Virus record (IMG/VR): IMGVR_UViG_3300027749_000044
DNA length: 64,000 bases
Strand: one strand, 5' to 3'
DNA from: a virus
Part shown: piece by piece, positions 11,817 to 54,138 of the stretch
Layout of the letters: each line of letters starts with the position of its first letter
Numbering within the stretch: the stretch's first letter is position 1
Translations under genes and position numbers: made by a program
Notes under the pieces: model-generated
What the model saw: only the letters and a program-made list of their open reading frames with translations
Database searches by the model: none
Told to the model about the DNA's origin: nothing

Positions 11817-11999
11817 ATGACATATTCTGTAGATGATATTGTAGGATTCGCGGTAACTAAAGATCATATGGGTCTAAAATCTGCAATTGATGATGTTCTA
11901 TCACAAAAAGCGGCCGATGCTTTAGATTACGAAAAGCAATTGGTTGGTCAATCATTTGGCTCAAACGATACCGAGGAACAATATGACGAAGAATATTAA
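11817..11999 (+). CDS. small prohead core protein (gp67-like)
   Basis: Small acidic ORF directly after portal; synteny. Confidence 0.6.
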   Translation: MTYSVDDIVGFAVTKDHMGLKSAIDDVLSQKAADALDYEKQLVGQSFGSNDTEEQYDEEY

Positions 12000-13782
12000 T
12001 TTACACGAAATCGAAGATACAGAATACAAATATTATGAGCCTAAACCGAAGGACGAAAAAGAATTCGTCGCTTCTCATAAACCAACGCGCCGGGACGTTC
12101 CTAACGAAGATGGCAAAGATGTATTCCGTCATATCAAAGCAATAAAAAAAGATAAAACACGGCCGGCCGATCCTGAAGGCTTCGATAAAGTAAATCGCGG
12201 CGGAAATTTAGGCAAAGAAGTTCGTGCAATGGAACTTCCTGAATCTGATTGCAAATGTAAGCTTGATAGAATCAGAAATAAAGCCAAGAAAATTTATGAA
12301 GGAACAGATGACGCTGCTCCTCCTCAACCTGTGGCATCTGATAATCCTCAGACGGGAAATATGCAAGCCGAACCAGATCCAAAACCTTCATCTGCCGATC
12401 CAATGGGCCCAATTCGTATACAATTGAAAAATATTGCATTAGCCGCGGCTGATATTTACGATGGTGTTTCCGAAGATACTACCATGGAACCATGGATGAC
12501 ACAGACTATTTCGAAAGCCGAAGGTGAATTTAGTAAAATCATTGAACAATTCAGAAAAAAATCCGGCGCCGAAAATCAAGTTTCTGAGACATATGAACAA
12601 AAAAAGGATAATAATCCTCAACATGTTAAACCATCAGTAAATCCTGAAGTTGCGAAAACACCAATCAAACCAAAACGTCCTTTCGGATCAGATAAGATTT
12701 CTCCTACTAAACCTGTAGAATATACAATGGCAAAAGAAGCATTTGATCCTCCAAATCCTAAATTGGTTGGAGATCACAAAGGCAATCCAACGTATGTTTA
12801 TCCCATCAAGAAAGTTACTGCTAAGCCTAAAAGGATTACAGATTTTCCTTTAGTTTCACCTAATCTTTCTCCTACGAATGAAGACATGTCTATTTCAGGA
12901 AACGAAGGTTCTTCAACTCATGAAGAATTATCTAACTTGTCATCTTCGCCAAATGGCAGAGTAAAAATTCAAGGTAAAGCATTTCCTATTAAACCAGGAG
13001 CAAGATCCGATACAAGAAGAGAAACTAGATATTTGCCAAATGTTACACCAAAGTCAATCAAAATTTTGGCTTCACCTGTTTATGAACAAGAAGTAATATT
13101 TGAATCTTCTTCATATAAAAAATTGTCAAAATTGCATGATGCATTAATCAAAGCTGGTTATAAACATTTGCACACAAAACATTCGAATCCTGAAGAAACT
13201 GAATATTCCACAGGAAGATCAGAATATCATAAAATTTTCCCAGGCGGCACAGATCAAATTGTTGTACAGCATTCTCCTGGTGATGCCGGTTCCGACCCGG
13301 GTCTTCATAGGATCATCAGAACAAAAACCACCGGACAAAAGCCAGAAGATTTTTCTTTGTCGGAATCAATTCATATTAACGAGGTACTAACAATGTCAGA
13401 CGATCAAATGTCACGCTATGCTAATTATATTGCATTGCATGAATCAAGAAGAAAAGGTTTAACTGAATCCGCTAGACGTGATGCCATGAAAGCTATGGGT
13501 CCTGCCGCCAAAGAAGTTGAACATGAGCCAGAAGATGAAAATCTTGAGCATGACGAAGAAGGTAACGCGAAAGGCGGGTCCGGACGTTATGTAGATGATT
13601 TACGTAAAGTTCCAAACACTGGCGGCATGGTCAAACACGGCGACGGAAAAATGCATCATGTTTCTAGAGTGGAAGCAAAGCGACGAGTTGCTGATATTCT
13701 GTCAAAGACAGTTGCTCATGGCGCCAGAGAAGCATTGCAAAATCAACATTTCAACAATCCACCAGCGCCACCAAAGGATTAA
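11983..13782 (+). CDS. large modular prohead core/internal protein in the gp68 position
   Basis: Lies between gp67-like and gp21; many (L/I/V)xE sites; start re-called at MTKNINLHE. Confidence 0.7.
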   Translation: MTKNINLHEIEDTEYKYYEPKPKDEKEFVASHKPTRRDVPNEDGKDVFRHIKAIKKDKTRPADPEGFDKVNRGGNLGKEVRAMELPESDCKCKLDRIRNKAKKIYEGTDDAAPPQPVASDNPQTGNMQAEPDPKPSSADPMGPIRIQLKNIALAAADIYDGVSEDTTMEPWMTQTISKAEGEFSKIIEQFRKKSGAENQVSETYEQKKDNNPQHVKPSVNPEVAKTPIKPKRPFGSDKISPTKPVEYTMAKEAFDPPNPKLVGDHKGNPTYVYPIKKVTAKPKRITDFPLVSPNLSPTNEDMSISGNEGSSTHEELSNLSSSPNGRVKIQGKAFPIKPGARSDTRRETRYLPNVTPKSIKILASPVYEQEVIFESSSYKKLSKLHDALIKAGYKHLHTKHSNPEETEYSTGRSEYHKIFPGGTDQIVVQHSPGDAGSDPGLHRIIRTKTTGQKPEDFSLSESIHINEVLTMSDDQMSRYANYIALHESRRKGLTESARRDAMKAMGPAAKEVEHEPEDENLEHDEEGNAKGGSGRYVDDLRKVPNTGGMVKHGDGKMHHVSRVEAKRRVADILSKTVAHGAREALQNQHFNNPPAPPKD

Positions 13783-13786
13783 TAAG

Positions 13787-14455
13787 ATGAAACTTATCGT
13801 CGAAACCGTCGAAGAGATCCAAGTTATAACAGAAGCTCGCGAAGATGGCAAGAAGAATTATTTCATTGAAGGCGTATTTCTTGTATCCGAAAAAGGCAAT
13901 AGAAATGGACGTTATTACCCAGAAAGTGTAATGGACCAAGAAGTTGCAAGATATACAAAAGAAGCAATCCAAGCTAACCGTGCTTATGGTGAATTAGGAC
14001 ATCCTTCGGGTCCAGCAATTAATCTTGATCGTGTATCTCATATGATTAAAGAATTACGCAAAGACGGAACCAATTATATTGGTCGTGCTTTGGTTACTGA
14101 AACTCCTATGGGTAAAATTGTACAAAATCTTATCGATGCTGGCGCCAATTTGGGTGTTTCTTCCCGTGGGCTAGGAACACTACAAAAAGGCAGAGATGGT
14201 TTGATGGAAGTAAAAAGTGATTTTAGATTAGCAACCGCCGCAGACATTGTTGCTGATCCTTCTGCTCCTGGAGCATATGTACGTGGAATTATGGAAGATA
14301 CCGATTGGTGGTATGATTTGGCTTCTCAATCCTGGAAAGCATCCAGACAAATTGAAGAAGACGTAAAAACAATCAATAAAGTTTCAAGCAAAGTATTATC
14401 AGAGCAAAAGGTTGCTATGTTTACTCGATTTGTAAACTCTTTGGTTCAAAAGTAA
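13787..14455 (+). CDS. gp21: prohead protease gp21
   Basis: NRNGR.YP, GELGHP, INLDRVSH, GVSSRG.G, DIVADPSAP.A; start re-called at MKLIVE. Confidence 0.97.
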   Translation: MKLIVETVEEIQVITEAREDGKKNYFIEGVFLVSEKGNRNGRYYPESVMDQEVARYTKEAIQANRAYGELGHPSGPAINLDRVSHMIKELRKDGTNYIGRALVTETPMGKIVQNLIDAGANLGVSSRGLGTLQKGRDGLMEVKSDFRLATAADIVADPSAPGAYVRGIMEDTDWWYDLASQSWKASRQIEEDVKTINKVSSKVLSEQKVAMFTRFVNSLVQK

Positions 14456-17071: not shown

Positions 17072-17647
17072 ATGTCTAAAGAAAAAACATCAGGGTTTGT
17101 GTATATTTGGTTTGACCGTAAACACAAGCGTTATTATATTGGTTCTCATTGGGGTGACCAAAATGACGGTTATATTTGCTCATCGGATTGGATGAAAAAG
17201 GCCTATAAACGAAGGCCGGATGATTTCAAACGTCGTATATTAAAAATTGTAATAACCAATCGACAAGATTTGTTGAATGAAGAAAATAGATGGCTATCTA
17301 TGATAAAAAAAGAAGAACTTAAAATCAGATATTATAATCACCATAATACTGAATTTGGCCATTGGTCAACAGATGAAAAACGTCGTGCTGAAATAGGCCA
17401 AAAAATATCAAAAACCAATAAAGGAATGAAGATTGAATTTTCAGATCCTGTGGGGCGCGGACAGAAGATAGCTGAAGGTAAACGTAAAGCATTCGAAAAA
17501 CGTAAAAAAGAAACGGGTGAATGTTTTAGTGAAGAACATCGTGAAAAATTGGCAGCCAAGAAACGAGGCACAACTAGATCACCAGAAGCAAAAGCCAAAT
17601 TATCTGAAACATTGAAGAATAAATATGCTTCTGGTTGGAGAGCCTAA
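17072..17647 (+). mobile_element. free-standing GIY-YIG (Seg-like) homing endonuclease
   Basis: GFVYIW...YYIGSH.G...DGYICSS; C-terminal NUMOD3-like segments (SEEHREKL, SPEAKAKLSE). Confidence 0.85.
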
Positions 17648-24797: not shown

Positions 24798-25126
24798 TGA
24801 AGAAAACACATGAGCCTTGGGAAATCGACTATAAATATAGTGAAAATTTAATTATGGAAGATTTACAACAACATCTTGACTCCACATACAGTCAACATTA
24901 CATTGCTGACGACAACATCCAATGTTTCGATGCATGGATTGCCATGGGTGATTCCACACCTACTTTCCGCAACACTGCAATGAAATATCTTTGGAGATAT
25001 GGCAAAAAGAACGGCAACAATAAAGCCGATCTAATGAAAGCACTTCATTATATTATTCTATGTTTGCATGTCGACCATTATAGAGATGCGTCATATGAAT
25101 GTGAAGATGGAGTTTGTTCTATATAA
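24797..25126 (+). CDS. DUF3310-like protein
   Basis: TYSQHY, KYLWRYGKKNG....DL.KA.HY. Confidence 0.7.
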   Translation: MKKTHEPWEIDYKYSENLIMEDLQQHLDSTYSQHYIADDNIQCFDAWIAMGDSTPTFRNTAMKYLWRYGKKNGNNKADLMKALHYIILCLHVDHYRDASYECEDGVCSI

Positions 25127-25148: not shown

Positions 25149-25511
25149 ATGTTGTCTTATTCTTTATTCTGCGAACGTTCACAAACAAACAGTCCAGTAT
25201 TCAAAAGACTTAAGTCACACGATAAATCTTTCCATACAGTCCGACAACACGGCGACGGATATACCAGTAGCACCGCTGATCCTAGATCAGGTGTACTACA
25301 TCATGGACGAGATGATGGACAACATGAAATAGGACACGTAGCCCACAATAATGAACTTATAGGTAATGTAATTCCTGTGCGAAATGAATCTGGAGGTCTA
25401 GAAGGCGCAATTCCTGTTACACATGGCAAAGAAGTCGGTGAAATGATACCAGGAAAAAATGCCGTCATGGATGCAGTCGATCATGTAATTAAAACGCATA
25501 AAGGTGGGTAA
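25149..25511 (+). CDS. His-rich putative internal head protein
   Basis: Late promoter TATAAATA at 25122; CTS-like MLSYSLFCE; 11 His in 120 aa. Confidence 0.6.
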   Translation: MLSYSLFCERSQTNSPVFKRLKSHDKSFHTVRQHGDGYTSSTADPRSGVLHHGRDDGQHEIGHVAHNNELIGNVIPVRNESGGLEGAIPVTHGKEVGEMIPGKNAVMDAVDHVIKTHKGG

Positions 25512-25726
25512 TGTCATACACAACTAAAGAAGAAAACCATGGAGTTGTTACTGTACATCATGAAGGCGAAAAGGTCGGCGTAGTTGTTCCGGAAAGACAT
25601 CCAAAAACAGGAGACGTCCGGGCACATTGCGCCATACATCAATCCGGTGATTGTTATCCTAAAATACCAGAAAAAGAAACTGCAATTAACGCTGTGATTG
25701 CAATGGATAAAAAACACAGGACATAA
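25511..25726 (+). CDS. His-rich paralog of the C-terminal half of the upstream ORF
   Basis: Shared V.H..E..G.V.P.R....G...H...IP.K...A...VI pattern. Confidence 0.6.
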   Translation: MSYTTKEENHGVVTVHHEGEKVGVVVPERHPKTGDVRAHCAIHQSGDCYPKIPEKETAINAVIAMDKKHRT

Positions 25727-25762
25727 ATACAATAGGCTATAAAATATTTTAAGGAAAAACTC

Positions 25763-26452
25763 ATGACCGACAGATTTCTAAGATTCACTGCAAACAGATT
25801 AAATACACAAAATATTAGTGAAATGTTTGGTAGGTCAAGAAAAGAAGATGACACTCTGTCGGAAGGTCCTTTTTCTCAAGGTAGCGTAAAGCCCACCCAA
25901 AAAATGAAAGATGAAATGGATCGTATTTCATCTACTATGCATGGCGTCGATGAAAAAGGTTCTTTTACTCAAAAGAAAGTAAATGGAAAATTGGGACCAA
26001 AAGTTTATGCCGAATCTGTAGTCAATGAAATGTTTGGTAAAAAGAAACAAACAGTTTCAGGGGAACAACATTTGCAAAATCTTTCGACCGATGCACATAA
26101 AATAAGCGGCGAAGCCGGTTGGTCTAGTGACGATGCATGGCATAGAAAGCCAATAGAAAGCCAAATTAATCCCCGAGCAAACCGAGAACACGTAAAAAAT
26201 ATAACAGCTGGTCTTTATCATCCTGAGGCAAAAAATTCAGATGCAGAAGATGTAAGAAGTAATCATCAAGTTGCACAAGAACATCATGAAATTGCTGGCG
26301 CCGCACATAGCGCCGCTGGTCAAGAAGCCCTCAAACAAGGTAATCATGATTTGGCAAAAGAACATTTCGAACATGCCAAACAACATGCAGTACACGCAAA
26401 AGCACACCAAGATGAATATGAAAGAGTAAACGGAACACATTACACCTGGTAA
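25763..26452 (+). CDS. His-rich modular putative internal head protein
   Basis: Late promoter CATAAATA at 25722; ISE/LSE/YAE/VNE sites; EMFG repeated. Confidence 0.6.
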   Translation: MTDRFLRFTANRLNTQNISEMFGRSRKEDDTLSEGPFSQGSVKPTQKMKDEMDRISSTMHGVDEKGSFTQKKVNGKLGPKVYAESVVNEMFGKKKQTVSGEQHLQNLSTDAHKISGEAGWSSDDAWHRKPIESQINPRANREHVKNITAGLYHPEAKNSDAEDVRSNHQVAQEHHEIAGAAHSAAGQEALKQGNHDLAKEHFEHAKQHAVHAKAHQDEYERVNGTHYTW

Positions 26453-43406: not shown

Positions 43407-43817
43407 ATGGATTCCAATTTGAGAATCCTGGACACTTTGGCGAAGCTAGCCGAAACGGTACCTAATCATTATAGAGGCCGTCTGGCAGCTGCCCTTGTAT
43501 ACCGAAATGAATTTTTGTCTTTCGGTATTAATCAAATGAAGTCCCATCCGTTTCAAAGTAAATTTTCTTCCACAAAAGAAGCCATCTATCTCCATGCCGA
43601 GACGGATGCAATCCGACATGCATTGAAGAAATATGACTTTAAGACGGTCGCCAAATCGAAGCTTTATATTTGTCGGGTAAAACATGAAACTGCCAACAAT
43701 CCAAGCTTGGTTTGGGGACTTAGCCGGCCTTGCGCCGGATGTCAACGGGCAATTGCTACGTTTAACATTGAACATGTATGCTATACGACGGAGAATGGCG
43801 GATATGACTGGCTCTAG
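43407..43817 (+). CDS. zinc-dependent deaminase-fold protein (CMP/dCMP deaminase-like)
   Basis: HAE ... RPCAGC zinc motif. Confidence 0.8.
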   Translation: MDSNLRILDTLAKLAETVPNHYRGRLAAALVYRNEFLSFGINQMKSHPFQSKFSSTKEAIYLHAETDAIRHALKKYDFKTVAKSKLYICRVKHETANNPSLVWGLSRPCAGCQRAIATFNIEHVCYTTENGGYDWL

Positions 43818-44525: not shown

Positions 44526-44550
44526 AAAGCCCCCTAACGGGGGCTTTTTT
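44526..44550 (+). terminator. rho-independent terminator
   Basis: AAAGCCCCC-TAAC-GGGGGCTTT followed by T-run. Confidence 0.9.
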
Positions 44551-44551
44551 G

Positions 44552-44559
44552 TATAAATA
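44552..44559 (+). promoter_or_regulatory. late promoter starting the cargo operon
   Basis: TATAAATA; further late-type sites at 45512, 48823 and 51051. Confidence 0.8.
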
Positions 44560-44580
44560 TATTAAACTGGAGAAATTGGT

Positions 44581-45513
44581 ATGCTAACTTTCAAAGAACA
44601 TTTTGAACTTGATCTTTTATTAGAAGAAGTATCTCCAAATGACAAAGGTGTTTTACATGAATTGTTGACGGGCAAAGCCCTCAATAATGGCGAACATATG
44701 TCACCAGAAGCAAAAGCCACACACGATAAAATTAAATCAAATATTACAGACGAAGAATATCAAAATCATGTAAAAATGGCCGAAGGTACTGCACATGCAT
44801 TACGCAAAAAATTCGGTCCAATTAGTTCGACGCATTGGTCGTCGAAACCAGGAGACATACACAAAATTACAGGTGTGCATGAAAGCCAACAAGAAAATCC
44901 TTCTGACATTATACTCAAACATCCTGATGGTGGACATACAGGAATTTCATTAAAAATTACACAAAAAAAACATCAAAAAATTCCCGTTGGAAATCCAGGA
45001 ATCGGACAAACTGACGCCGCGTTAGGTACAAATGCGAAAAGACATTATGATAAAGCAAAAGAAAATTTTGAAAAAGAATTTCCTGAATTAAAAGGCAAAT
45101 CCGACAAAGACAAAAAAATCGCGATTAAAGAAAATTCAGAAATGAGAAAACGGGCTGAACATCACTCGAATGATGCCATAGGAAAAATCAGAGATGAATG
45201 GCACGATAGATTTCATCAAATGGCCCACCACGAATTGGCCCATCATCTAAGACATTCTTTACATGCGAATGCTACTAAAATTCCAACATATAAAGTAACT
45301 ACCCGCGGAAATGGCAATGATCATTCTGTAGAGATTGAACATCCTGGAACAGAATATGATCATATTCTAAATCATCCCGAAGGAATAACAATCCACAAAT
45401 CTGGAAATAATAGTATTGAATTTAGACACAATGGCAAAAGATTCATGCGGCATAGAATTAAACCAATGAGTACTCCTATTGCCACGACATTAAAAGGCTC
45501 TATAGAGTATTAA
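44581..45513 (+). CDS. His-rich putative internal protein, PD-(D/E)xK nuclease-like
   Basis: CTS-like MLTFKEHF..LLLEE; G..HE...PSDI.......GISLK. Confidence 0.55.
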   Translation: MLTFKEHFELDLLLEEVSPNDKGVLHELLTGKALNNGEHMSPEAKATHDKIKSNITDEEYQNHVKMAEGTAHALRKKFGPISSTHWSSKPGDIHKITGVHESQQENPSDIILKHPDGGHTGISLKITQKKHQKIPVGNPGIGQTDAALGTNAKRHYDKAKENFEKEFPELKGKSDKDKKIAIKENSEMRKRAEHHSNDAIGKIRDEWHDRFHQMAHHELAHHLRHSLHANATKIPTYKVTTRGNGNDHSVEIEHPGTEYDHILNHPEGITIHKSGNNSIEFRHNGKRFMRHRIKPMSTPIATTLKGSIEY

Positions 45514-45543
45514 TAAATACTTGTTTGGACACGGAAAGAATAT

Positions 45544-46722
45544 ATGAAAAATTATCTCAGTTTTATCGTCGAAGAAAATGAAAAAAGTGCCGGCCACCAG
45601 CATATAGAACATATTTCCGATGTCGGAGCATTTGATGGTCCGCACGGAACAAAAAGAGCAATTGGTGCACTGCAAGGATTTCATGCAAAAACTGATGCTA
45701 CTCGCAAATTGGACGATTCGATGTCATTTCATACGACTAGATTGGCCGACGGTAAAGTTGGAGTTAAATATAAAGGCTCAGGTGCAAAGTGGTATTTTCA
45801 TGACGGCACCGAAAAGGGCATAGAAAATGCACACAAAGAAATTGACGCTGATTTGGCTCATAAACCATATATGGCCGAAAAGCTAAAACATTTGGTATCA
45901 CATATACACAAAGTACTTCCAGATCGACCAGGATCGTGGCAAGGCGGGTATATGCATGATGCAGAATCAAGACATGAAACAAATGGCAAAATTCATTTCC
46001 GGCCAAATACAATCAATTATTCTACCGACGCCGATTCTCCAGAAGGCAAGAAAATCAAAAAGTCAAAGGTAGGAATTGCAATACATACGGAACTAGTTCA
46101 TCCAGACGGCAAACCAGTTCCTGTTTTGGACAACTCAGAATTTAAACATCATCCGGACGTGCATATGATGGGTCACGTCATTCCTAAATCAGAAACTACA
46201 TTGTCCAAAGAAGACCATGATGCATTACATCATCATTTAAAAGAAGCACATGATTTATCCCACAACAGAGATTATAATCACCTCAAAGGACATGAAACCA
46301 CTTTGAGAACTTATATGAATTCTACGGTCAGAGAAAACAAAGAACCAAATGCCGAAGGATACCATAATTGGTTGAGAGATTATCATAATAAAAAAATCGA
46401 CTCTGTAAAAACGGATAAAGCTAAAGCCGCCAAAATTGCCGAACGCGACAAAGCACTCGCTCATGTAAAATCTAATAAAGACCATTTCGATAACACCTTT
46501 AAACTACATCATCATCTAGAAAAAGCTACTGATATTTTGGCCAATCATGTATCTAGACATTCGACAGGAGGATTTGGGCATGATATTGATGGGCAAGAAT
46601 CGGGCCCGGAAGGTGCTGTAATACATGGTCTCAAAATTGTAAAGCGCCGAGGTGGATTTTCAGAGGCAAATTTCCGTAGAGCGGAAGAATTCAAAAAATC
46701 TAGAGCAGAGGCTAAACAATAA
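45544..46722 (+). CDS. His-rich DUF6267-like protein with ligase-like nucleotidyltransferase motifs
   Basis: CTS-like MKNYLSFIVEE; HIEH, KLDD, F.PNTI.Y, EGAV, KIV.R..FS.ANF. Confidence 0.65.
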   Translation: MKNYLSFIVEENEKSAGHQHIEHISDVGAFDGPHGTKRAIGALQGFHAKTDATRKLDDSMSFHTTRLADGKVGVKYKGSGAKWYFHDGTEKGIENAHKEIDADLAHKPYMAEKLKHLVSHIHKVLPDRPGSWQGGYMHDAESRHETNGKIHFRPNTINYSTDADSPEGKKIKKSKVGIAIHTELVHPDGKPVPVLDNSEFKHHPDVHMMGHVIPKSETTLSKEDHDALHHHLKEAHDLSHNRDYNHLKGHETTLRTYMNSTVRENKEPNAEGYHNWLRDYHNKKIDSVKTDKAKAAKIAERDKALAHVKSNKDHFDNTFKLHHHLEKATDILANHVSRHSTGGFGHDIDGQESGPEGAVIHGLKIVKRRGGFSEANFRRAEEFKKSRAEAKQ

Positions 46723-48383
46723 TGGTTGATTCCCCAGATAACACCGGCCCAGATACAAGTAAAGTTGAGCCTGAAGCAAAACAAAAAGAATTACCAAAAC
46801 ATGCCAAGCTTGGTGATATTATAAGAAAAAAATTCAAGTCTGCTGGATTGCAAGTAAAAACTGCATTGGGAGACGAACCGGACGAAATCGTAATTAATCC
46901 TATGACTGAATCTGCCGCGGTGTCCAAAAATAGACATGCGGTTGTTTCATTTGGTCGTATGGGAATTTTTACTAATGGTCATAAAAAATTGACTGATAAA
47001 GTCAAAGCCGTGGCAAAAAAAGTCGGCGGAACAGCATCTGTTTATTTGTCAAAAACACAAGATGCAAAAAAGAATCCTTTATCATATGAAGACAAATTGA
47101 GATATGCCAAAATCGGGTCAGGTGGGGTTGTTAAACATTCTGATGCACGTAATATTATGGAAGTTGCAGCACAACATCATGGTCAGGCAGAACATCTACA
47201 TGTAGTTGTTGGTGGTGATAGAGTAAAAGAATTTCACGATTTGCTACACAAATATAATGGAAAAGAAGGAGCCGCCCATGGATTTTATCATTACAAGTCT
47301 ATTACTGTACATAATGCAGGCGACCGTGACCCAGACGCAGAAGGAACAGAAGGTATTTCTGCATCGAAAATGAGAGAACACGCATCAAATAATGATACAG
47401 AATCCTTTAAACAAGGATTGCCGGATTCATTGAAGCCACATGCCGGCGAAATGATGCATAAAGTAAGAAAGGGCATGAAATTGGAAGAAGAGTCGCTGAA
47501 AAGTATATTAAATTCTATATTCGAAGAAAAATCAGTGAAGGCTATTCCAACCCCAGGAAGTAGCAATATTCGTCCAACCAAATATCCAAACGGTGCCGGC
47601 GACGTTGGAATGGATTCGAATATTGAAGTTGCCAATGGTCCTATAGATCAAGCAAACAAAACAGTACAAAGAAAAAGAGGAGCAGTGGTAAAAAGAATGC
47701 AAGGACCATTGGATCTAGATGAAATGGGAACATTGGATCAACGTGCCCTCCAAGATTTAGAAGATAGAACTCCTAAGAAAGAAAGTCGATTGACTCCTTG
47801 GGAAAGGATTCAAAAAAAAAGAAGAAGTCACAAAAAAGAAACGACAACGGTAAATGAACACATTGTCAAGTTGCCTTCTGGCAAATATAGATTACTTTCC
47901 CATAAAGGCAAAAATTTAGGCACGTTTGATAGTCATGAGGCCGCGGCCAAACATGAGGGTGAAGTTGAATATTTCAAAACTCACAATGAAGGTTTTGATG
48001 TTGAAGAATCCGCCGCCTGGCAACGTAAAGAAGGAAAAAATCCTACAGGCGGACTAAATGATAAAGGTATTGCTTCGTATCGCGCTGAAAATCCAGGTTC
48101 ACATCTACAAAAAGCAGTAACAGGTAAAGTAAAACCAGGGTCAAAAGCCGCCAATAGACGCAAGTCATTCTGTGCTAGAATGTCTGGTGTTCCTGGTCCT
48201 ATGAAAGATGATAAAGGAAGACCAACAAGAAAAGCTCTGTCTCTCAGAAAATGGAAATGCCATGAAGAAAATGAAACAGGCGGACTATTAGAAGACAAAC
48301 CATGTTGGAAACAATATAAGCAACTTGGAATGAAAAAGAAAAATGGGAAAGAAGTGCCCAATTGTGTACCTAAAGAGGAATAA
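46722..48383 (+). CDS. cytidylyltransferase-like (HIGH) domain fused to small modules (polyprotein-like)
   Basis: FGRM...TNGH, KNPL, VVG.DRV.EF, AG.RDPDAEG..G.SASKMR; C-terminal AAWQRKEGKNP...RKSFCARM and PCW..Y...G.KKK.GK.VPNCVP modules. Confidence 0.8.
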   Translation: MVDSPDNTGPDTSKVEPEAKQKELPKHAKLGDIIRKKFKSAGLQVKTALGDEPDEIVINPMTESAAVSKNRHAVVSFGRMGIFTNGHKKLTDKVKAVAKKVGGTASVYLSKTQDAKKNPLSYEDKLRYAKIGSGGVVKHSDARNIMEVAAQHHGQAEHLHVVVGGDRVKEFHDLLHKYNGKEGAAHGFYHYKSITVHNAGDRDPDAEGTEGISASKMREHASNNDTESFKQGLPDSLKPHAGEMMHKVRKGMKLEEESLKSILNSIFEEKSVKAIPTPGSSNIRPTKYPNGAGDVGMDSNIEVANGPIDQANKTVQRKRGAVVKRMQGPLDLDEMGTLDQRALQDLEDRTPKKESRLTPWERIQKKRRSHKKETTTVNEHIVKLPSGKYRLLSHKGKNLGTFDSHEAAAKHEGEVEYFKTHNEGFDVEESAAWQRKEGKNPTGGLNDKGIASYRAENPGSHLQKAVTGKVKPGSKAANRRKSFCARMSGVPGPMKDDKGRPTRKALSLRKWKCHEENETGGLLEDKPCWKQYKQLGMKKKNGKEVPNCVPKEE

Positions 48384-48386
48384 ACT

Positions 48387-48827
48387 ATGTCAACATTGAG
48401 TGATAAATTAAAAGTAGTATTGGCCGACACTTTTGCATTATATTTAAAAACACATAATTTTCATTGGAATGTAGAAGGCCCAAATTTTCCACAGTATCAT
48501 GCATTTTTCGATTCATTATATAATGAATTATGGGAAGCAACTGACGGTATTGCAGAACATATCCGGGCGCTAGATGATTATGCTCCAGGATCTTTTGCTA
48601 GGTTCGGAGCACTGTCAAATATTAAAGATGAAGTACGGATTTTATCAGCCGAAGACATGATTAAAATTTTATATTTAGATAATGACGTTGTAATGAAATC
48701 AATCAAAGACGCATATAAAGAAGCAGAAAAAGCAGGCGAATGTGGAGTAAGTAATTATCTACAAGATCGATACGACATACACAAAAAACATGCATGGATG
48801 CTAAGGTCTACTTCAAAGAAACCATAA
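48387..48827 (+). CDS. dps: Dps/ferritin-like DNA-protection protein
   Basis: KTHNFHWNVEG.NF...H..F...Y.E....D.IAE, KHAWML. Confidence 0.92.
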   Translation: MSTLSDKLKVVLADTFALYLKTHNFHWNVEGPNFPQYHAFFDSLYNELWEATDGIAEHIRALDDYAPGSFARFGALSNIKDEVRILSAEDMIKILYLDNDVVMKSIKDAYKEAEKAGECGVSNYLQDRYDIHKKHAWMLRSTSKKP

Positions 48828-48859
48828 ATAACAAGAATATTCAAATACAGGGAACCAAA

Positions 48860-50866
48860 ATGAACATTAATGAAGCAAAGAAAAGAGCCGAAAATTCACG
48901 CAGAATGTCAGAAATTCTAGCAAAACTTTCATCGGCTCCAAATAAAAATGCCAAGAAAAGAGCCGCAGCCGAATTGTCTCGCATCGGCATTGAATCAGCA
49001 TTGAAGTTGGCTCCTGTTTCTGAAGCCGAAGAATTGTTCAATGATTTTGATGTTCTTTCTGAAAATGAATTTGCGATGAAGTATTCGGGAGTACTTGGTG
49101 TTCCTATCTATGAAGGATTGGTTGATATTGCCAAAAACCATATGAAGACTCGCGGACAAATCGATGCATTGAAAAGTATTTTGAATGGTGAAAAGAAACC
49201 AAAAGCTCCTAAGACCGAAGTATTTCCTGGGTCAAGTGATCCATACAAACGTGGCATTAAAACCATAAAGACACCTAAACAAGTCGCCAAAGAAGATTAT
49301 GAGTTGGATGAATATTATATCAATACTGACGAAAGCAATCCTCACGACAAACGTAAAGTTACTGTACCTACAACAAAAAGAAAAATTTCTGATATAACAC
49401 CGGACGAAATTAAACGTCATATCTATGGACGCGAAATTAACCATCGTATCGGTGTACACCGGGACACAGAAACTTATATGCATAAAGAAGATTATGAGTT
49501 GAATGAAGGCGCCGGTGATTTGTCTGATGAAGCCCGCGAGTTGACTTTACATGCTGATAATGACCGTCATTTACATATGTCAAGTCATGAGCCTATTATG
49601 ACTAATCTTCGTAAAAAAGTAAAAGAAGGGAAATATGATTCTGCACTTGCGAAAAAGCTTTGGAGATATCATGCTGACCGTGCCGCACAAGATTATGCAA
49701 AAAAGCACGGAAATGGAATTCATTGGTCCAAAATGTTCACGCCAGCGCACCGCGACGAGGCGGCCGCCCATTGGGAAGAAATGCATCGTGGCGAATTGTC
49801 CGAAGCAAAAAATCCATTCACTCAAATGGATGTACCAGGAACAATTGCAAGTAGAGTTAGCACCCGCGTTATTTCTGATCCAAAAGCAAGAAAAAAAGCA
49901 GCAAGAGATGCCAATAAACCACCTAAGGTTGATAAAAAAGGCAAAGTAAAAAATCCAACACCAAACGTATTGAATCCTCCCGCAGTTACGCGCGTAGCGA
50001 GACCAAAAACAAAAGCTCCTGGTGTTGTTAGAGGCATTACTGTTCCCATCAAAAAAATCGCAGGAGAAATGTTGGGTGACGTTGTTGGCGCGATCAAAAA
50101 TAGAAATCAGCCTTATGAAAGATTACAAGAGGAACCAGAAATGACCAAAATGACACCAGACAGTATGTCAAAAAGAAATCTAAATGTCGAACGTGATATT
50201 ATGGAAATTATGTCACAGGATCGCGATGTTCGTATGGAAGCAAAGTTGGCCGAAGCAAAGTTGGCAGGCATTATTTCCGAAAGTTCGCCTACACACGACG
50301 AAAAAACAAAATATGCACATCCTGGATTAAACCACGAACCAGAAGAAGAAGGCGGCCCTGATCTCTCTAAGCCTGCCGCCGGACATGAATATCATAAAAA
50401 GCACGGATTGGTTCACCCAGGACTTCCCATGCATCATGGTGGTTGGAGTAAAAGTACCGGAGTTTATAATACCGGACATCATTTTCTATCTGGCGAACAT
50501 ATTCATGACTGGCATAAGCATTTGATGAATACTTCACCAGATGAACATGAAGCACATTTATCACATCTTTCTGACGTCGGTGCTGGGCGTAAAGGTTGGA
50601 GAGGAGTACATTTGGCAACAGTAAATGCACAAAGTATTCTTGCACATCATTATACAAATTTACTAGTCGACCATAAAAAGCATTTGGCTAATGCCAAGAC
50701 TAAAGAAGAAAAAGACGAAGTACATGCCAGACTGGCCCGCGCACATGATGCGGCCATGCACGGCGGAGTAGATATCACCGGCCATGATGGTGTACACCGT
50801 TACGCACAACATATTTTAAATTCACGCAAAGATGCTGAAAGTATTATAGGAAAAAGTAAAGACTAA
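48860..50866 (+). CDS. large modular His/Lys-rich putative internal polyprotein
   Basis: Late promoter CATAAATA at 48823; start re-called at MNINE; repeated (L/I/V)xE linkers; KEDYEL(D/N)E twice. Confidence 0.7.
   Translation: MNINEAKKRAENSRRMSEILAKLSSAPNKNAKKRAAAELSRIGIESALKLAPVSEAEELFNDFDVLSENEFAMKYSGVLGVPIYEGLVDIAKNHMKTRGQIDALKSILNGEKKPKAPKTEVFPGSSDPYKRGIKTIKTPKQVAKEDYELDEYYINTDESNPHDKRKVTVPTTKRKISDITPDEIKRHIYGREINHRIGVHRDTETYMHKEDYELNEGAGDLSDEARELTLHADNDRHLHMSSHEPIMTNLRKKVKEGKYDSALAKKLWRYHADRAAQDYAKKHGNGIHWSKMFTPAHRDEAAAHWEEMHRGELSEAKNPFTQMDVPGTIASRVSTRVISDPKARKKAARDANKPPKVDKKGKVKNPTPNVLNPPAVTRVARPKTKAPGVVRGITVPIKKIAGEMLGDVVGAIKNRNQPYERLQEEPEMTKMTPDSMSKRNLNVERDIMEIMSQDRDVRMEAKLAEAKLAGIISESSPTHDEKTKYAHPGLNHEPEEEGGPDLSKPAAGHEYHKKHGLVHPGLPMHHGGWSKSTGVYNTGHHFLSGEHIHDWHKHLMNTSPDEHEAHLSHLSDVGAGRKGWRGVHLATVNAQSILAHHYTNLLVDHKKHLANAKTKEEKDEVHARLARAHDAAMHGGVDITGHDGVHRYAQHILNSRKDAESIIGKSKD
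49289..49507 (+). repeat. 24-nt direct repeat (49289-49312 and 49484-49507)
   Basis: AAAGAAGATTATGAGTTG(G/A)ATGAA, 23/24 identical. Confidence 0.9.
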
Positions 50867-51072
50867 TGGTCATCATTGCTGGACAAATGAAACTTCTGAA
50901 TTCAGAAGGTGAACCCACAAAAAAGTTGGAGTCTGAAGTTCAACACAAATTGGTTGTTGACTTCACTCCGACATATATTGTCCAAAATGAAGTAATTAAG
51001 TTGGCAGATTATGTGGAAAAGCCATCCGATTATGTTATGGAAATGACCGCGCTAAATACCACAAAAACATAA
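50866..51072 (+). CDS. hypothetical protein
   Basis: ORF coupled by TAATG overlap. Confidence 0.55.
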   Translation: MVIIAGQMKLLNSEGEPTKKLESEVQHKLVVDFTPTYIVQNEVIKLADYVEKPSDYVMEMTALNTTKT

Positions 51073-51087
51073 TAAAGGAAAAAAGCC

Positions 51088-52023
51088 ATGTCTCTCTGGA
51101 GTAATACTCAAAACCAAAATGCCGCACCAAAATTTACAACTTATACTGTCGACCGAATCGCAAAATATAGGTTGTCCGGTGCAGGAAACGTTGCAACCTC
51201 AACTAGCCCTGCCGACCCTTTGTCTTTCACTACGTATAACAACACTTCTATTGCCGCATTTGGAAATAATATTGCAGTAGGAACATTTGGTGTTTCTGTT
51301 GGCGAAGCCAAAGCAAAAAATGGCAATACTTCAGGTCAAGGGTTAGGGTCTCAAGGAAATGGTGGTCCTGGTGTTTCTCCTGGTTGGGTTAACGTTCGTT
51401 TTGGTACAGGACCTGTTGTTGGTGCAACTGTAGCTACGTCGAACGCAACTGTATATACAACATTGTTTGCAAATGGAGAAACGGCTGTTTTCTCTAATGG
51501 CACGTCAAATGCCATTTTGACGGCCGTAACAAATGCAACCGGCAACTTGGTTTCTCTTGTAGTTACAAATGGTGGTTCCGGATTTGCCAATGTTTCTCAA
51601 GGTGTAATTGCTTTTGCTCGCCAGAAACACTTAGGCACAATTGCCGTTACTTCAAACGCTACTGCCATTGGTTATAATAATACAGACCTTATTATTGCTT
51701 CAAATGGTGTAACAAATGCCGTGGCTACATTGACTACTAATGCGACCGGTGGTATTACAGCAACTACAGTAACCAATCCTGGTCTATTCGGAAATACAGT
51801 CGCAAACTCGACTGTTGTATTCTCTGTAACAAATGCCACCGGTGGAGCCACATCCGGCAACGTTGTTTCTACTGTATTTGCGGCTAACTTGGTTGCTAGT
51901 ACAAATACTGGCGCTCAAATCGCAGTAACTTTAGGTGGTCGTGCAGGAAGAATCCAATATGAAACACTTGCTGTAGTTAAGGCCATGGCCAATAACTCAC
52001 CAAGTACAATTTTCCCAGGATAA
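51088..52023 (+). CDS. Asn/Thr/Gly/Ala-rich virion structural protein (decoration/fibre-like)
   Basis: MSLW start, PGWV, GRAGRIQYETL C-terminus, internal duplicated beta-rich unit; late promoter GCTAAATA at 51051. Confidence 0.7.
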   Translation: MSLWSNTQNQNAAPKFTTYTVDRIAKYRLSGAGNVATSTSPADPLSFTTYNNTSIAAFGNNIAVGTFGVSVGEAKAKNGNTSGQGLGSQGNGGPGVSPGWVNVRFGTGPVVGATVATSNATVYTTLFANGETAVFSNGTSNAILTAVTNATGNLVSLVVTNGGSGFANVSQGVIAFARQKHLGTIAVTSNATAIGYNNTDLIIASNGVTNAVATLTTNATGGITATTVTNPGLFGNTVANSTVVFSVTNATGGATSGNVVSTVFAANLVASTNTGAQIAVTLGGRAGRIQYETLAVVKAMANNSPSTIFPG

Positions 52024-52029
52024 TAATTA

Positions 52030-52266
52030 ATGACCTCTATTGCAAATTTAAATTCTACTTCCAGTTTGACGCAAGACGCGGTCTTTGTTGTTGATAATGC
52101 TCCCAATACTAATCCAAGTACAGTAAAAATTACATTGGCGAGCCTTATCAACAACATTATCCCTGGACCATATGCGAATAATTCCATGATGTTGGCCGCA
52201 AATACAGTACAGATAGGACAACCATTTTATTATTCTAATGGGATGGTTGTAGTAAGACTTTCATAA
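52030..52266 (+). CDS. small structural-type hypothetical protein
   Basis: Asn-rich ORF in the late operon. Confidence 0.55.
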   Translation: MTSIANLNSTSSLTQDAVFVVDNAPNTNPSTVKITLASLINNIIPGPYANNSMMLAANTVQIGQPFYYSNGMVVVRLS

Positions 52267-52658
52267 TGTACGAAAAATTGGATGAAAGTAATTTTTTAAT
52301 TTACGCCGCGAAATATTATGATAATCCACAGTGTTTCGATACTCAAGAATTTATGGAAGATTTGAATAGGTTTAGATACGTCAAAAGATTATTAAAGAAA
52401 TATAAAGAAACGGGCGATTTAAAAGAGAGATTGATTCTCAACCATATTATAATAATTTACAATGTTTTTGGGTTGGTCCCAGCTACTCGAATGTTATTTT
52501 TCAAAATGAATACTATGTATTCTGAGTTGACACCGTTTCTTGAATTTCTTGGATATATGCCAGATCGCATTGATAATATAGGATTAGTTCCAAAAACTGT
52601 ATATAATAAAGATATCGAACAGGATAAATATATATTGGATTGCCTCAAAAAAATATAG
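52266..52658 (+). CDS. conserved T4-like hypothetical protein
   Basis: NF..YA.K.YDNP.C....EF.EDL.RF.Y.KRL, RLILNHII...NVFG. Confidence 0.8.
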   Translation: MYEKLDESNFLIYAAKYYDNPQCFDTQEFMEDLNRFRYVKRLLKKYKETGDLKERLILNHIIIIYNVFGLVPATRMLFFKMNTMYSELTPFLEFLGYMPDRIDNIGLVPKTVYNKDIEQDKYILDCLKKI

Positions 52659-52670
52659 AACGGAATCAAA

Positions 52671-53144
52671 ATGAAATGTTATTCTGAATATATTGCCGAA
52701 AAAAAAGAAACAGAAGTTGACGTAAGCCGAAAACATGTTGGTCCCGCATTGGCGACACACAAAGGTTATACTTATCATATTATTAATACCGTCACAGGAG
52801 CCGATTTTGTCAAAGCGAATCCAAGCGCCCAGATTGGCCGATACCAAGTCATCAAAAGATCCAAAGATGGTCGACATATCTCACGTGGCATTTTTACTAC
52901 ACCAGAAGGTGCCATGCGCCAAATCAGACGGTCGACAGGAAGACCAGCCGTGGTTTCGGAGGATGGCGGAGGAGCCGTTGGAGGTGGGGCCCCTGCTACA
53001 TCTACAGCCGGAGTGTCTGGAACTGGCTCGGACAAAACTGTTCCTGTTTCCGTCAAAGCCCAAAAGAAAATCGTAAAAGCAGCACAAGATCCATCACATA
53101 AACCACTTCGCAATATATCAACGACGGCGATGTTTGGCAAGTAA
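52671..53144 (+). CDS. putative internal head protein with T4-like capsid-targeting sequence
   Basis: MKCYSEYIAE closely resembles the T4 IPIII CTS MKTYQEFIAE; internal VSE site. Confidence 0.65.
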   Translation: MKCYSEYIAEKKETEVDVSRKHVGPALATHKGYTYHIINTVTGADFVKANPSAQIGRYQVIKRSKDGRHISRGIFTTPEGAMRQIRRSTGRPAVVSEDGGGAVGGGAPATSTAGVSGTGSDKTVPVSVKAQKKIVKAAQDPSHKPLRNISTTAMFGK

Positions 53145-53146
53145 TA

Positions 53147-53659
53147 ATGAATCCATTATTTTTTCTTAATGTAATTCCTTTACCTTGGAAAATAGTCGGC
53201 ATATCTTTTATGATTGTCGCTATTTTTTTTGCTGGATATTTTCATGGCAAAAAAATAGAACACATTAATTTTGAAAATTATCAACTTGCTCAAGAAAAAA
53301 AATACGCCGAATTAGAAAAAAAAGTTGGACAAGTATCTGTGGAAACAGTCACAAAATATCTAACTAATACGAGTGTGATTGAAAAAAGGATTCCTATATA
53401 TGTCCAAATTGCCAATAATAATGTTCCTTCTCAGTATGATCTTTCTAATGGTTGGGTGTTCTTACACAACACCGCAGCCACAAATAGTGATCCCGACCCC
53501 ACCCGAAGTTCTGATGCGACCCCCTCGGGAATTAAAGACAATACAGCCCTCGAAACCGTCACAGAAAATTACGGAATCTGCCACGAAAACTCAGAACAAT
53601 TAAAGCAATTACAGGCATGGATAAATACCGTCAGTAAAACAAATAAAGGGCCAAAATAA
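53147..53659 (+). CDS. inner-membrane spanin (Rz-like)
   Basis: N-terminal TM helix, helical periplasmic part, NY..C..N..QL..LQ.W C-terminus; contains an embedded lipoprotein gene. Confidence 0.8.
   Translation: MNPLFFLNVIPLPWKIVGISFMIVAIFFAGYFHGKKIEHINFENYQLAQEKKYAELEKKVGQVSVETVTKYLTNTSVIEKRIPIYVQIANNNVPSQYDLSNGWVFLHNTAATNSDPDPTRSSDATPSGIKDNTALETVTENYGICHENSEQLKQLQAWINTVSKTNKGPK
53400..53603 (+). CDS. outer-membrane spanin (Rz1-like lipoprotein), fully embedded in +1 frame
   Basis: MSKLPIIMFLLSMIFLMVG-C lipobox, then Pro-rich PTPPEVLMRPP.EL. Confidence 0.8.
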   Translation: MSKLPIIMFLLSMIFLMVGCSYTTPQPQIVIPTPPEVLMRPPRELKTIQPSKPSQKITESATKTQNN

Positions 53660-54138
53660 TGACTGCCAATTCTTCAATCGAAGTTAGAGTTTCTTTGCTC
53701 GAAAAAGGGTTCGATGGATTGTCTGCTCTATTGGACAAATTTGACGTAACAAACGAAAAATTATCTGATGTCACATATTCTATAAAACAACTTCTGGCTG
53801 TACACGAAATACAATTACGCAAGCATGACGAAGCCGATGAAGAAATTTATAAGTTAATCGAAGCTCGACGTGATGAAATGATGATGATGAACAACGTACA
53901 GAATCAAAAATTTCAAACTTTGCAAACCGAACTCAATAGAAAAATTGATGATACTGAGCGGGAATTACTCAAAGAACTTAAATCAATTAAAGATGACATG
54001 CAAACTCGACATAAAGAAACCGATACAAGATCCCAGCAACTTGAACGTTGGAAATGGATCGCAGTCGGCGCGATTGGCCTAGCATTTTTCCTGGCATCAA
54101 AATCAAATATTTTTTCATTTTTCACCTCTATGATCTAA
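53659..54138 (+). CDS. coiled-coil protein with C-terminal TM helix (possible lysis role)
   Basis: LAVHE..L, LERWKWIAVGAIGLAFFL; directly after the spanins. Confidence 0.6.
   Translation: MTANSSIEVRVSLLEKGFDGLSALLDKFDVTNEKLSDVTYSIKQLLAVHEIQLRKHDEADEEIYKLIEARRDEMMMMNNVQNQKFQTLQTELNRKIDDTERELLKELKSIKDDMQTRHKETDTRSQQLERWKWIAVGAIGLAFFLASKSNIFSFFTSMI

Follow-up and report, generated by a model that had tools for sequence, protein, structure and literature searches.

The DNA analysed here, referred to as the window, is a stretch of 64,000 nucleotides (nt) from the IMG/VR virus record IMGVR_UViG_3300027749_000044 and belongs to a T4-like myophage, as indicated by Pfam matches to a head module consisting of gp20, the gp21 protease, gp22 and gp23. 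We studied the interval from 44,552 to 53,144, in which several plus-strand genes code for proteins that start with peptides resembling the capsid-targeting sequence (CTS) of T4 internal head proteins, and in which two long products consist of small modules adjoining motifs of the kind cut by the T4 prohead protease. The genes in question encode a 310-amino-acid (aa) protein (g310; 44581-45513), a 392-aa DUF6267 protein (45544-46722), a 553-aa multi-module protein with a nucleotidyltransferase domain (46722-48383), a 668-aa multi-module protein (48860-50866) and a 157-aa basic orphan protein (52671-53144). The presumed processing enzyme, a gp21-type prohead serine protease (Pfam Peptidase_S77 PF03420, E 1.1e-34), is encoded on the same strand at 13787-14455, within an open reading frame (ORF) spanning 13595-14455 whose true start is at about 13787 (MKLIVE..), and is flanked by Portal_T4, T4_CASP and Gp23 genes. 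For comparison we used 124 related IMG/VR viral loci. L-numbers designate related loci, L128 standing for the Stenotrophomonas phage DLP6 (KU682439).

In T4, residues 4 and 7 of the CTS are targeting determinants, residues 8 and 10 are involved in processing, and gp21 follows the rule L/I-x-E (PMC9026906). The T4 reference proteins (NC_000866) IPII and IPIII start with MKTYQEFIAE/A and IPI starts with MKTFKEFTSTTTPVSTITE/A, the slash marking here and below the position after the Glu. When all start codons of the window, on either strand, were scored against the T4 decamer MKTYQEFIAE, the two top scores were obtained for MKCYSEYIAE of the 157-aa protein at 52671 (7/10) and MKNYLSFIVE of the DUF6267 protein at 45544 (6/10). 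Both are true ORF starts, and both retain residues 4, 7 (aromatic), 8 (aliphatic) and 10 (Glu). The leader of g310 at 44581 (MLTFKEHF.., in full MLTFKEHFELDLLLEE) resembles MKTFKEFT of T4 IPI. An earlier note on this DNA had proposed four CTS-like N-termini, all of which are present as quoted; two of them are decamers of the T4 kind and one is IPI-like, but the fourth, MNINE of the 668-aa protein, is a five-residue IxE leader and not a CTS-like decamer. No CTS-type leader was found on the 553-aa or 668-aa proteins, nor on replication, tail or other gene products of the window. The 157-aa protein, which carries the best CTS match, has only two homologues, starting with MKSYFEYISE and MKTYAEYISE, in which positions 1, 2, 4, 6, 7, 8 and 10 are kept, and its slot in the relative L051 is occupied by a 132-aa protein with the leader MKGFKQFVNE followed by a CW module.

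Such N-termini could be incidental to ordinary cytoplasmic late nucleic-acid enzymes, reflecting for example a translation-initiation constraint. An MK start or an A-rich 5' coding region is nothing unusual, and cyanophages, which lack the leaders, encode DUF6267, the nucleotidyltransferase and DUF7207 in a conserved syntenic block beside replication genes. However, in the 124 relatives and the window the pattern M..[YF]..[YFHW][ILVMF].E was present at 45 of 2846 ORF N-termini compared to 5 of 12,202 internal Met residues, making it about 39-fold commoner at N-termini, and its 39 distinct proteins fall into only 12 BLAST-unrelated families clustered in two loci. Even positions left free by the pattern drift to the T4 residues (K2 in 25/39, A11 in 15/39, and A9 in 10/39, where Ala is the commonest residue, tied with Thr). 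This residue-by-residue agreement is with an experimentally mapped CTS (PMC9026906), and a constraint on initiation would leave unexplained why positions 4 and 7 are aromatic, position 8 is aliphatic and position 10 is Glu. We consider an incidental origin highly improbable; at the sequence level the leaders are real and exceed chance.

The families bearing the leader include DUF6267, a 475-aa family, proteins with a CW..VPNCV mini-module, Gly-rich peptides, an AAA_33/zeta-type P-loop protein that also matches phrog_505 'polynucleotide kinase', and a HAD-like protein matching phrog_415. The phages concerned are uncultured aquatic, cyanophage-type T4 relatives and one cultured phage, DLP6. The leader is an add-on, as judged from the sequences of g310, DUF6267 and nucleotidyltransferase homologues, which occur with and without it. 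DUF6267 proteins of relatives, for instance, start with MKSYNQYIAE/ADANLHMTHLED, whereas that of cyanophage P-HM1 starts straight at ..LKHLEHIEDE.

Behind its leader, g310 is predicted to adopt a nuclease fold of the PD-(D/E)XK type similar to HinP1I and MspI. In the AlphaFold (AF2) model, with a predicted local distance difference test score (pLDDT) of 92.1, residues 1-13 are disordered (pLDDT <50) and the first helix starts at residue 19, just past LLLEE16. The best-fitting structures were HinP1I (Z 10.4, root-mean-square deviation 4.3, 211 aligned residues) and MspI (Z 7.8); the other listed matches, from rank 4 down (Z 5.6-3.9), were all nucleases, mostly of the same fold. The model thus has a restriction-endonuclease-like core fold, and the residues invariant in the family (E27, D109, S123 and K125) follow the order E..D..xK. 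HinP1I and MspI are monomeric type II restriction endonucleases, and g310 resembles them in its whole-protein fold and, putatively, in the invariant acidic residues and Lys. It differs from them in sequence (11-12% identity), in having Ser for Glu/Gln, in the lack of an adjacent methyltransferase and in its capsid-targeting-type leader, and is a predicted nuclease only. We found 211 homologues; of the 24 that were read, most carry leaders of the type MLxFKxFLxE and several are leaderless.

The leader of the 392-aa protein, MKNYLSFIVE, precedes a DUF6267 domain (Pfam E 1.8e-37) with motifs like those of ligase-type nucleotidyltransferases. Its relatives contain KWDG (motif I, TKWDGAP) and EGFV, while the copy in the window has the weakened form RKLDDS, in which Lys and Asp are kept and Gly is lost. 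The model reached a pLDDT of 67, VIA-align matches to ligases and tRNA ligases had Z of only about 5 amid helical noise, and neither Foldseek nor the profile and sequence searches of the PDB gave a match. The gene overlaps that of the 553-aa protein as TAATG, and the two look translationally coupled. We rejected the idea that a -1 frameshift joins the tagged 392-aa product to the untagged 553-aa one, since the open stretch of the downstream frame ahead of its ATG is just 6 nt long. In relatives (L013:4183-5040, L039:8063-8677 and L013:5040-6269), three adjacent genes with leader tags resemble a complete set for healing and sealing ends, comprising a P-loop kinase (AAA_33/zeta; phrog_505, E 1.6e-9), a HAD-like DxDxT protein (phrog_415 'polynucleotide kinase', E 1e-4) and a KxDG ligase-like DUF6267.

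The 553-aa protein matches phrog_3041 'cytidyltransferase' (E 2.4e-55) and DUF6321 (E 1e-23). It consists of a propeptide-like N-terminal part of 63 aa (..PMTE/), a HIGH-type nucleotidyltransferase domain at about 62-269, a small module at 380-418, DUF6321 at 438-511, ending exactly where stand-alone versions of this domain end, and a CW..VPNCV mini-module at 528-551. The nucleotidyltransferase includes the motif FGRMGIFTNGH and is about 40% identical to cyanophage copies, but is very divergent: it had no Pfam match and no PDB sequence match, and the TIGR00125 score of 17 bits lies below the cut-off of 27.7. In 23/23 non-cyanophage homologues, [LI]xE is located 8-18 (mostly 8-11) aa before FGRM, i.e. 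before the first strand, either within a short leader (MKKYRQLIKE/, MLLKELFE/) or behind a propeptide of 80 residues (..TEPRINE/A..); the window has ..NPMTE/S at this place. Likewise, the CW..VPNCV mini-module follows GGLLE/ in the window and directly follows the CTS in relatives (MKSYSTFVTE/KCW.., MKTFKQYCE/ADGCW..).

The 668-aa protein starts with MNINE and has one full-length homologue (57% identity). It is divided into modules at about 1-5, 6-85, 86-151, 152-216, 217-315, 316-424, 425-474 and 475-668, and [ILV]xE is found at each boundary. Homology to P0002-P0024 breaks off at LNE216, LSE315 and ISE474. BLAST breakpoints lie exactly at RGELSE315/ and GIISE474/. The module at 217-315, here called HADND, starts after YELNE216/ and is a conserved, His-rich domain of 99 aa with 32 invariant columns (..ELTLHADND..KLWRYHADRAAQ..HWE..). 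More than 20 proteins have only this module in common, which occupies varied places in chains that are otherwise unrelated. Of 31 non-redundant multi-module contexts, 29 had [LIV]xE within the 20 residues N-terminal to the HADND module, compared to a background of 28% in random 20-residue windows of the same proteins (binomial p 2e-14), whereas none of 18 stand-alone versions of 134-138 aa had an upstream [LIV]xE. Where the HADND module ends a protein, the trailing ELxE decays to ELHH or EVHSD. The earlier note's expectation that (L/I/V)xE motifs are enriched at domain boundaries is borne out by these junctions.

The junction motif might be a joint for cassette shuffling instead of a protease site, with linker repeats promoting recombination and the proteins working uncut. 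Concordantly, modules have been swapped between loci and relatives exactly at the joints, and a 65-aa module within the 668-aa gene (49289-49507, plus strand) is bracketed by a 24-nt direct repeat (23/24 identical; copies at 49289 and 49484) that encodes KEDYEL(D/N)E. Beyond this one repeat, however, the joints share only [LIV]-x-E, while the middle residue and the flanks vary; likeness in the peptide pattern alone fits selection on a peptide motif rather than on DNA homology. The motif moreover equals the gp21 rule (PMC9026906) and is lost at protein ends. Shuffling and protease sites are not mutually exclusive, but that the proteins work uncut appears improbable to us.

Two further loci that the earlier note had regarded as related behave alike in leaders, in a shared module and in an indel bounded by xxE motifs. 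At 11983-13782, in the gp67/gp68 slot between portal and protease, a 599-aa K/P/E-rich protein is encoded on the plus strand with the leader MTKNINLHE (MTKKIN[LI]TE in its homologues). A module of 80-100 aa (residues 388-469), bounded by LH(D/E) and INE, is present or absent in this family. The second locus, 25149-26452, includes plus-strand genes for a 120-aa His-rich protein (9.2% His; 25149-25511) behind TATAAATA at 25122, and for a 229-aa His-rich protein (25763-26452) with CATAAATA at 25722. The 9-residue leader of the former, MLSYSLFCE, resembles MKTFKQYCE and MLSYNQFVTE of relatives. Residues 24-82 of the latter, following TLSE/, are 49% identical (E 3e-13) to residues 226-286 of P0002, an orthologue of the 668-aa protein, where they follow SLSE/. 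No Pfam, PHROGs or NCBIfam match was obtained for the 310-, 668-, 599-, 157-, 120- and 229-aa proteins, and in the ESM Atlas the 157-aa protein and the HADND module scored below the useful range. His makes up 3.2-10.2% of the eight cargo candidates, with values including 9.7%, 10.2%, 9.2%, 7.4% and 6.5%, whereas the remaining 64 ORFs have a median of 1.9% (Mann-Whitney p 3e-5); many homologues are His-rich too. A gene for a Dps/ferritin-like protein is situated in the middle of the block (48387-48827, plus strand; Pfam Ferritin PF00210, E 3.6e-25, residues 7-142). The His-rich cargo may have a metal- or pH-related role.

The position of some of these genes raises the question whether the long chains (the 668-aa and 599-aa proteins, possibly together with the C-terminal half of the 553-aa one) are accessories of the core or scaffold like gp22, gp67 and gp68, whose fragments would be expelled before DNA packaging, as is the fate of T4 core proteins (PMC9026906). 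The 599-aa protein occupies the gp67/68 slot, and the chains are K/E-rich with many potential sites. Relatives encode such chains between gp20 and gp21, where L067 and L068 carry HADND-module and CTS-led genes, and in a complete relative of 144.8 kilobases (kb) a 417-aa HADND protein without a BLAST match to gp22 is encoded between protease and gp23, in the place of gp22 (L091:9830-11083). Against a scaffold role, the HADND module is a conserved domain that exists in stand-alone form in other viral contigs, which suggests a function of its own. Moreover, enzyme folds (nuclease-like, ligase-like and nucleotidyltransferase) are unlikely to be mere filler, and a nucleotidyltransferase homologue has been found in mature cyanophage virions (PMC3037559). 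On balance we regard the scaffold explanation as unlikely. The S77 protease was present in four of five contigs with multi-module HADND proteins, the fifth being a 24%-complete fragment.

The block is set apart from the preceding genes by an intrinsic terminator at 44526-44547 (plus strand; 9-base-pair stem with 6 GC pairs, 4-nt loop, T run), in agreement with the earlier note, which had also listed four late promoters. An exact T4-type late promoter motif, TATAAATA, is situated at 44552-44559, 28 nt 5' of the g310 gene. The variants AATAAATA at 45512-45519 and CATAAATA at 48823-48830 precede the 392-aa gene by 31 nt and the MNINE start at 48860 by 36 nt, respectively, but the fourth listed site, at 51051, reads GCTAAATA and is off the motif. 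A variant absent from that list, GATAAATA at 52623-52630, lies 47 nt 5' of the 157-aa gene. The four sites that fit are all on the plus strand. In the whole window, TATAAATA has 10 copies, all on the plus strand, and ATAAATA occurs 18 times on the plus and never on the minus strand; 13 of the 18 sites are located 25-55 nt 5' of a gene start, including those of gp18, gp22 and gp23. The late promoter of this phage seems to be NATAAATA rather than strict TATAAATA, and NATAAATA motifs, identified as sequence motifs only, are found 28-47 nt upstream of four genes of the block.

The description of the block as consisting of non-core genes holds in part, since the genes for DUF6267, the nucleotidyltransferase, a virion structural protein and DUF7207 have a syntenic counterpart in cyanophage P-HM1 as well as in Stenotrophomonas phage DLP6. 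A 311-aa Ala/Thr/Gly/Asn-rich protein (51088-52023, plus strand) takes the place of the cyanophage 'virion structural protein'. It was assigned by synteny and an N-terminal motif only (MSLW..APKF, like MALWGKTD..PKY), and had neither a BLAST match nor a Pfam match. The DUF7207 protein (52266-52658, plus strand; Pfam E 7.9e-39), with 19 homologues in related loci, is a syntenic marker of the block. Dps-like homologues are present at the same place in some relatives (L031, L033, L035 and L039). As the Dps-like, the 311-aa structural-type and the DUF7207 proteins have no leader, they were not counted as cargo.

Taken together, we propose that the interval is the main cargo locus of an internal-head-protein system of the T4 type, involving core targeting, gp21-type cutting, retention with the DNA and delivery, and we assign this reading a probability of roughly 65%. 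Late promoters would drive genes for proteins with the N-terminal leader M-K/L-x-Y/F-x-x-Y/F-I/L/V-x-E or a shorter Mxx[IL]xE, and the leader would bind the scaffolding core during prohead assembly. The gp21-type protease would then cut after (L/I/V)-x-Glu, removing the leaders and separating the modules of the 553-aa and 668-aa proteins. Mature pieces, which may comprise the HinP1I/MspI-fold nuclease-like protein, the ligase-like DUF6267, the HIGH-type nucleotidyltransferase, DUF6321, the Cys-containing mini-module, the His-rich HADND module and a 147-aa basic orphan, would be kept in the head with the DNA, exit with it when the next cell is infected and act ahead of phage gene expression. 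What the sequences and models themselves display are the leaders and their distribution among families, the motifs at junctions and promoters, the protease gene and the folds; from these we infer core binding, cleavage, retention, ejection and a function in the host. Injection and an anti-defence or takeover role may be surmised solely by analogy with T4 IPI* and Alt. The earlier idea is supported in part: the comparative evidence on the leaders, their distribution, the position of the junctions and the S77 gene favours its core, CTS-type leaders and protease processing of multi-module proteins.

Several observations weigh against this reading. Although the xxE linkers named previously exist and are concentrated at module boundaries, the 553-aa and 668-aa proteins do not contain more (L/I/V)xE motifs than expected by chance. 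For [LI]xE we counted 5 vs 4.2 expected in the 553-aa protein (z 0.5) and 10 vs 6.5 in the 690-aa ORF (z 1.6); the 599-aa protein had 9 vs 4.8 (z 2.0), and the gp22 scaffold, used as control, 18 vs 7.1 (z 4.4). Because the counts were not significant, raw enrichment was dropped as evidence and position alone was kept. Nor does every listed xxE appear to be a linker, as several are inside the nucleotidyltransferase domain. MNINE is too short to be called a CTS, the 553-aa protein has none, and the site before its domain is MTE and not [LI]xE. The putative catalytic triad of g310 has Ser where Glu or Gln is usual. Since a packaged active nuclease would need protected phage DNA, avoidance of 4-base-pair palindromes (GCGC, CCGG and others) was looked for in the window as a sign of self-protection, and none was found. 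Neither g310 nor the HADND module had a tblastn match among 50,697 GenBank phage records. Finally, the cyanophage P-HM1 homologues are without leaders. Considering that T4-GC190, an orthologue of the nucleotidyltransferase, was nevertheless detected in S-SM1 virions, targeting may work by other means. The authors of the S-CREM2 study caution that the cytidylyltransferase may be a co-purifying contaminant (PMC10665884).

A more far-reaching and tentative possibility, which we would doubt rather than assert, is that a broad aquatic and soil clade of T4-like phages pre-loads a 'cut, heal and seal' kit that is addressed by leaders, partly freed by the head protease from shuffled polyproteins, injected, and active before phage expression. 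The kit might comprise the restriction-fold nuclease, the ligase-like enzyme and the nucleotidyltransferase, and in relatives also the Pnk-like kinase and the HAD phosphatase; conceivable roles include repair of phage DNA or tRNAs hit by host defences, or attack on host DNA.

The T4 CTS, a classic, has been seen as serving a handful of small internal proteins in T-even coliphages. In the present case, this tag and its protease rule seem to underlie a large and shuffled set of enzymes and domains, spread over many uncultured T4-like phages and DLP6. If packaging is real, this would explain the recurrence of cytidylyltransferase in cyanophage virion proteomes, and injected proteins could be predicted by a sequence rule from nothing but the genome. 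It would also delimit a pool of proteins acting in the first seconds of infection, the most plausible place for counter-defence functions, and would offer natural leaders and linkers with which foreign proteins might be brought into phage heads.

Further features of the window, whose contig on record measures 151 kb, are in keeping with a T4-like phage. Pfam matches identified the large terminase (5558), tail sheath (7277), T4 portal (Portal_T4, 10044), T4-type scaffold gp22 (T4_CASP, 14504) and gp23 (15662), with UvsW, a gp46-like protein and a family B polymerase further downstream. The gp23 protein is 67.6% identical to that of DLP6 and about 61% identical to those of Caulobacter Cr30, Sinorhizobium phiM12, Methylophilales Melnitz and Pelagibacter Mosig. 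At the T4 gp23 maturation site LTE/, an LxE (LME/, LAE/ or LTE/) is kept in the window and its relatives, the window having LME/. The cargo region had no megablast match among the GenBank phage records. An ORF directly after gp23 (17072-17647), starting ..GFVYIWFDRKHKRYYIGS.., has by eye the look of a GIY-YIG homing endonuclease. Just 5' of the block, an ORF for 136 aa (43407-43817) contains HAE...PCAGC, recognised by eye as a zinc motif of the cytidine/dCMP deaminase type, which may be relevant to a possible modification of the phage DNA. Immediately 3' of the cargo block, an ORF for a 170-aa protein with a transmembrane anchor (53147-53659) embeds, in another frame, an ORF for 74 aa with a lipobox (..LMVGC; 53379-53603); the two form an i-spanin/o-spanin pair, and the product of the next ORF (53659-54138) has a C-terminal transmembrane segment.

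Among cultured phages, DLP6 has the same block. Its AAY80_066 is a DUF6267 protein starting with MMKFTQFLAE, AAY80_068 a nucleotidyltransferase chain of 722 aa that starts with MKNIKDILE.. and has ..PPLTE/ before the domain, and AAY80_069 a His-rich protein of 433 aa. The C-terminal segment of the 722-aa 'cytitidyltransferase' (L128:7815-9983) has a DGHHR motif and appears ParB/sulfiredoxin-like by eye. The exodeoxyribonuclease VII annotation of the gene after it looks wrong, given a His-rich modular protein with joints of the type EEVDQIDE. The DLP6 paper contains no virion proteomics (PMC5349666). In the literature we found no paper that connects T4-like phages of the cyanophage type, or other aquatic ones, with a capsid-targeting sequence, nor one that describes this pattern outside the T-even group.

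A known virion component close to the present case is T4-GC190, the cytidylyltransferase homologue of the nucleotidyltransferase, which was detected in virions of S-SM1 (PMC3037559) and S-CREM2, the authors of the latter study noting that cytidylyltransferases are often detected in cyanophage virions (PMC10665884). T4-GC190 of S-SM1 and S-CREM2 shares with the window the nucleotidyltransferase domain and the neighbourhood of DUF6267, virion structural protein and DUF7207. Unlike T4-GC190, the nucleotidyltransferase of the window is fused to DUF6321 and other modules, and the P-HM1 copy differs from the non-cyanophage homologues in having neither a leader nor an upstream [LI]xE. The cyanophage papers tie the presence of T4-GC190 to neither a targeting peptide nor protease processing (PMC3037559, PMC10665884).

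The giant phages phiKZ, 201phi2-1 and SPN3US have inner-body and ejection proteins; many of their head proteins possess propeptides and redundant sites, cleavage taking place behind the Glu of a short motif (PMC9026906). Their protease, gp175, is related to gp21, but their proteins are unrelated to the present ones, and the present phage, of about 150 kb, is of the classical T4 type. The giant-phage cleavage motif is reported to differ, being a small residue-x-Glu, and we know of no T4-type decamer leader reported in these three phages.

With T4 IPI, IPII, IPIII and Alt, the window shares at the sequence level a leader of 9-19 residues with the same key positions, the S77 protease and the L/I-x-E rule. 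As in T4, late-type transcription signals are found, and the candidate cargo includes a small, basic and hypervariable protein (the 157-aa orphan) and at least one protein of enzyme type, as is Alt. Unlike in T4, the tag is present on at least 12 unrelated families with several enzyme folds, to which relatives add the Pnk-like kinase and the HAD-like protein, and several products are built as chains of 4-8 modules with protease-type motifs at the joints. The cargo here is His-rich, whereas T4 internal proteins are only Lys-rich. Altogether, the principle is that of T4; what is new is its spread over many enzyme families and the polyprotein architecture.

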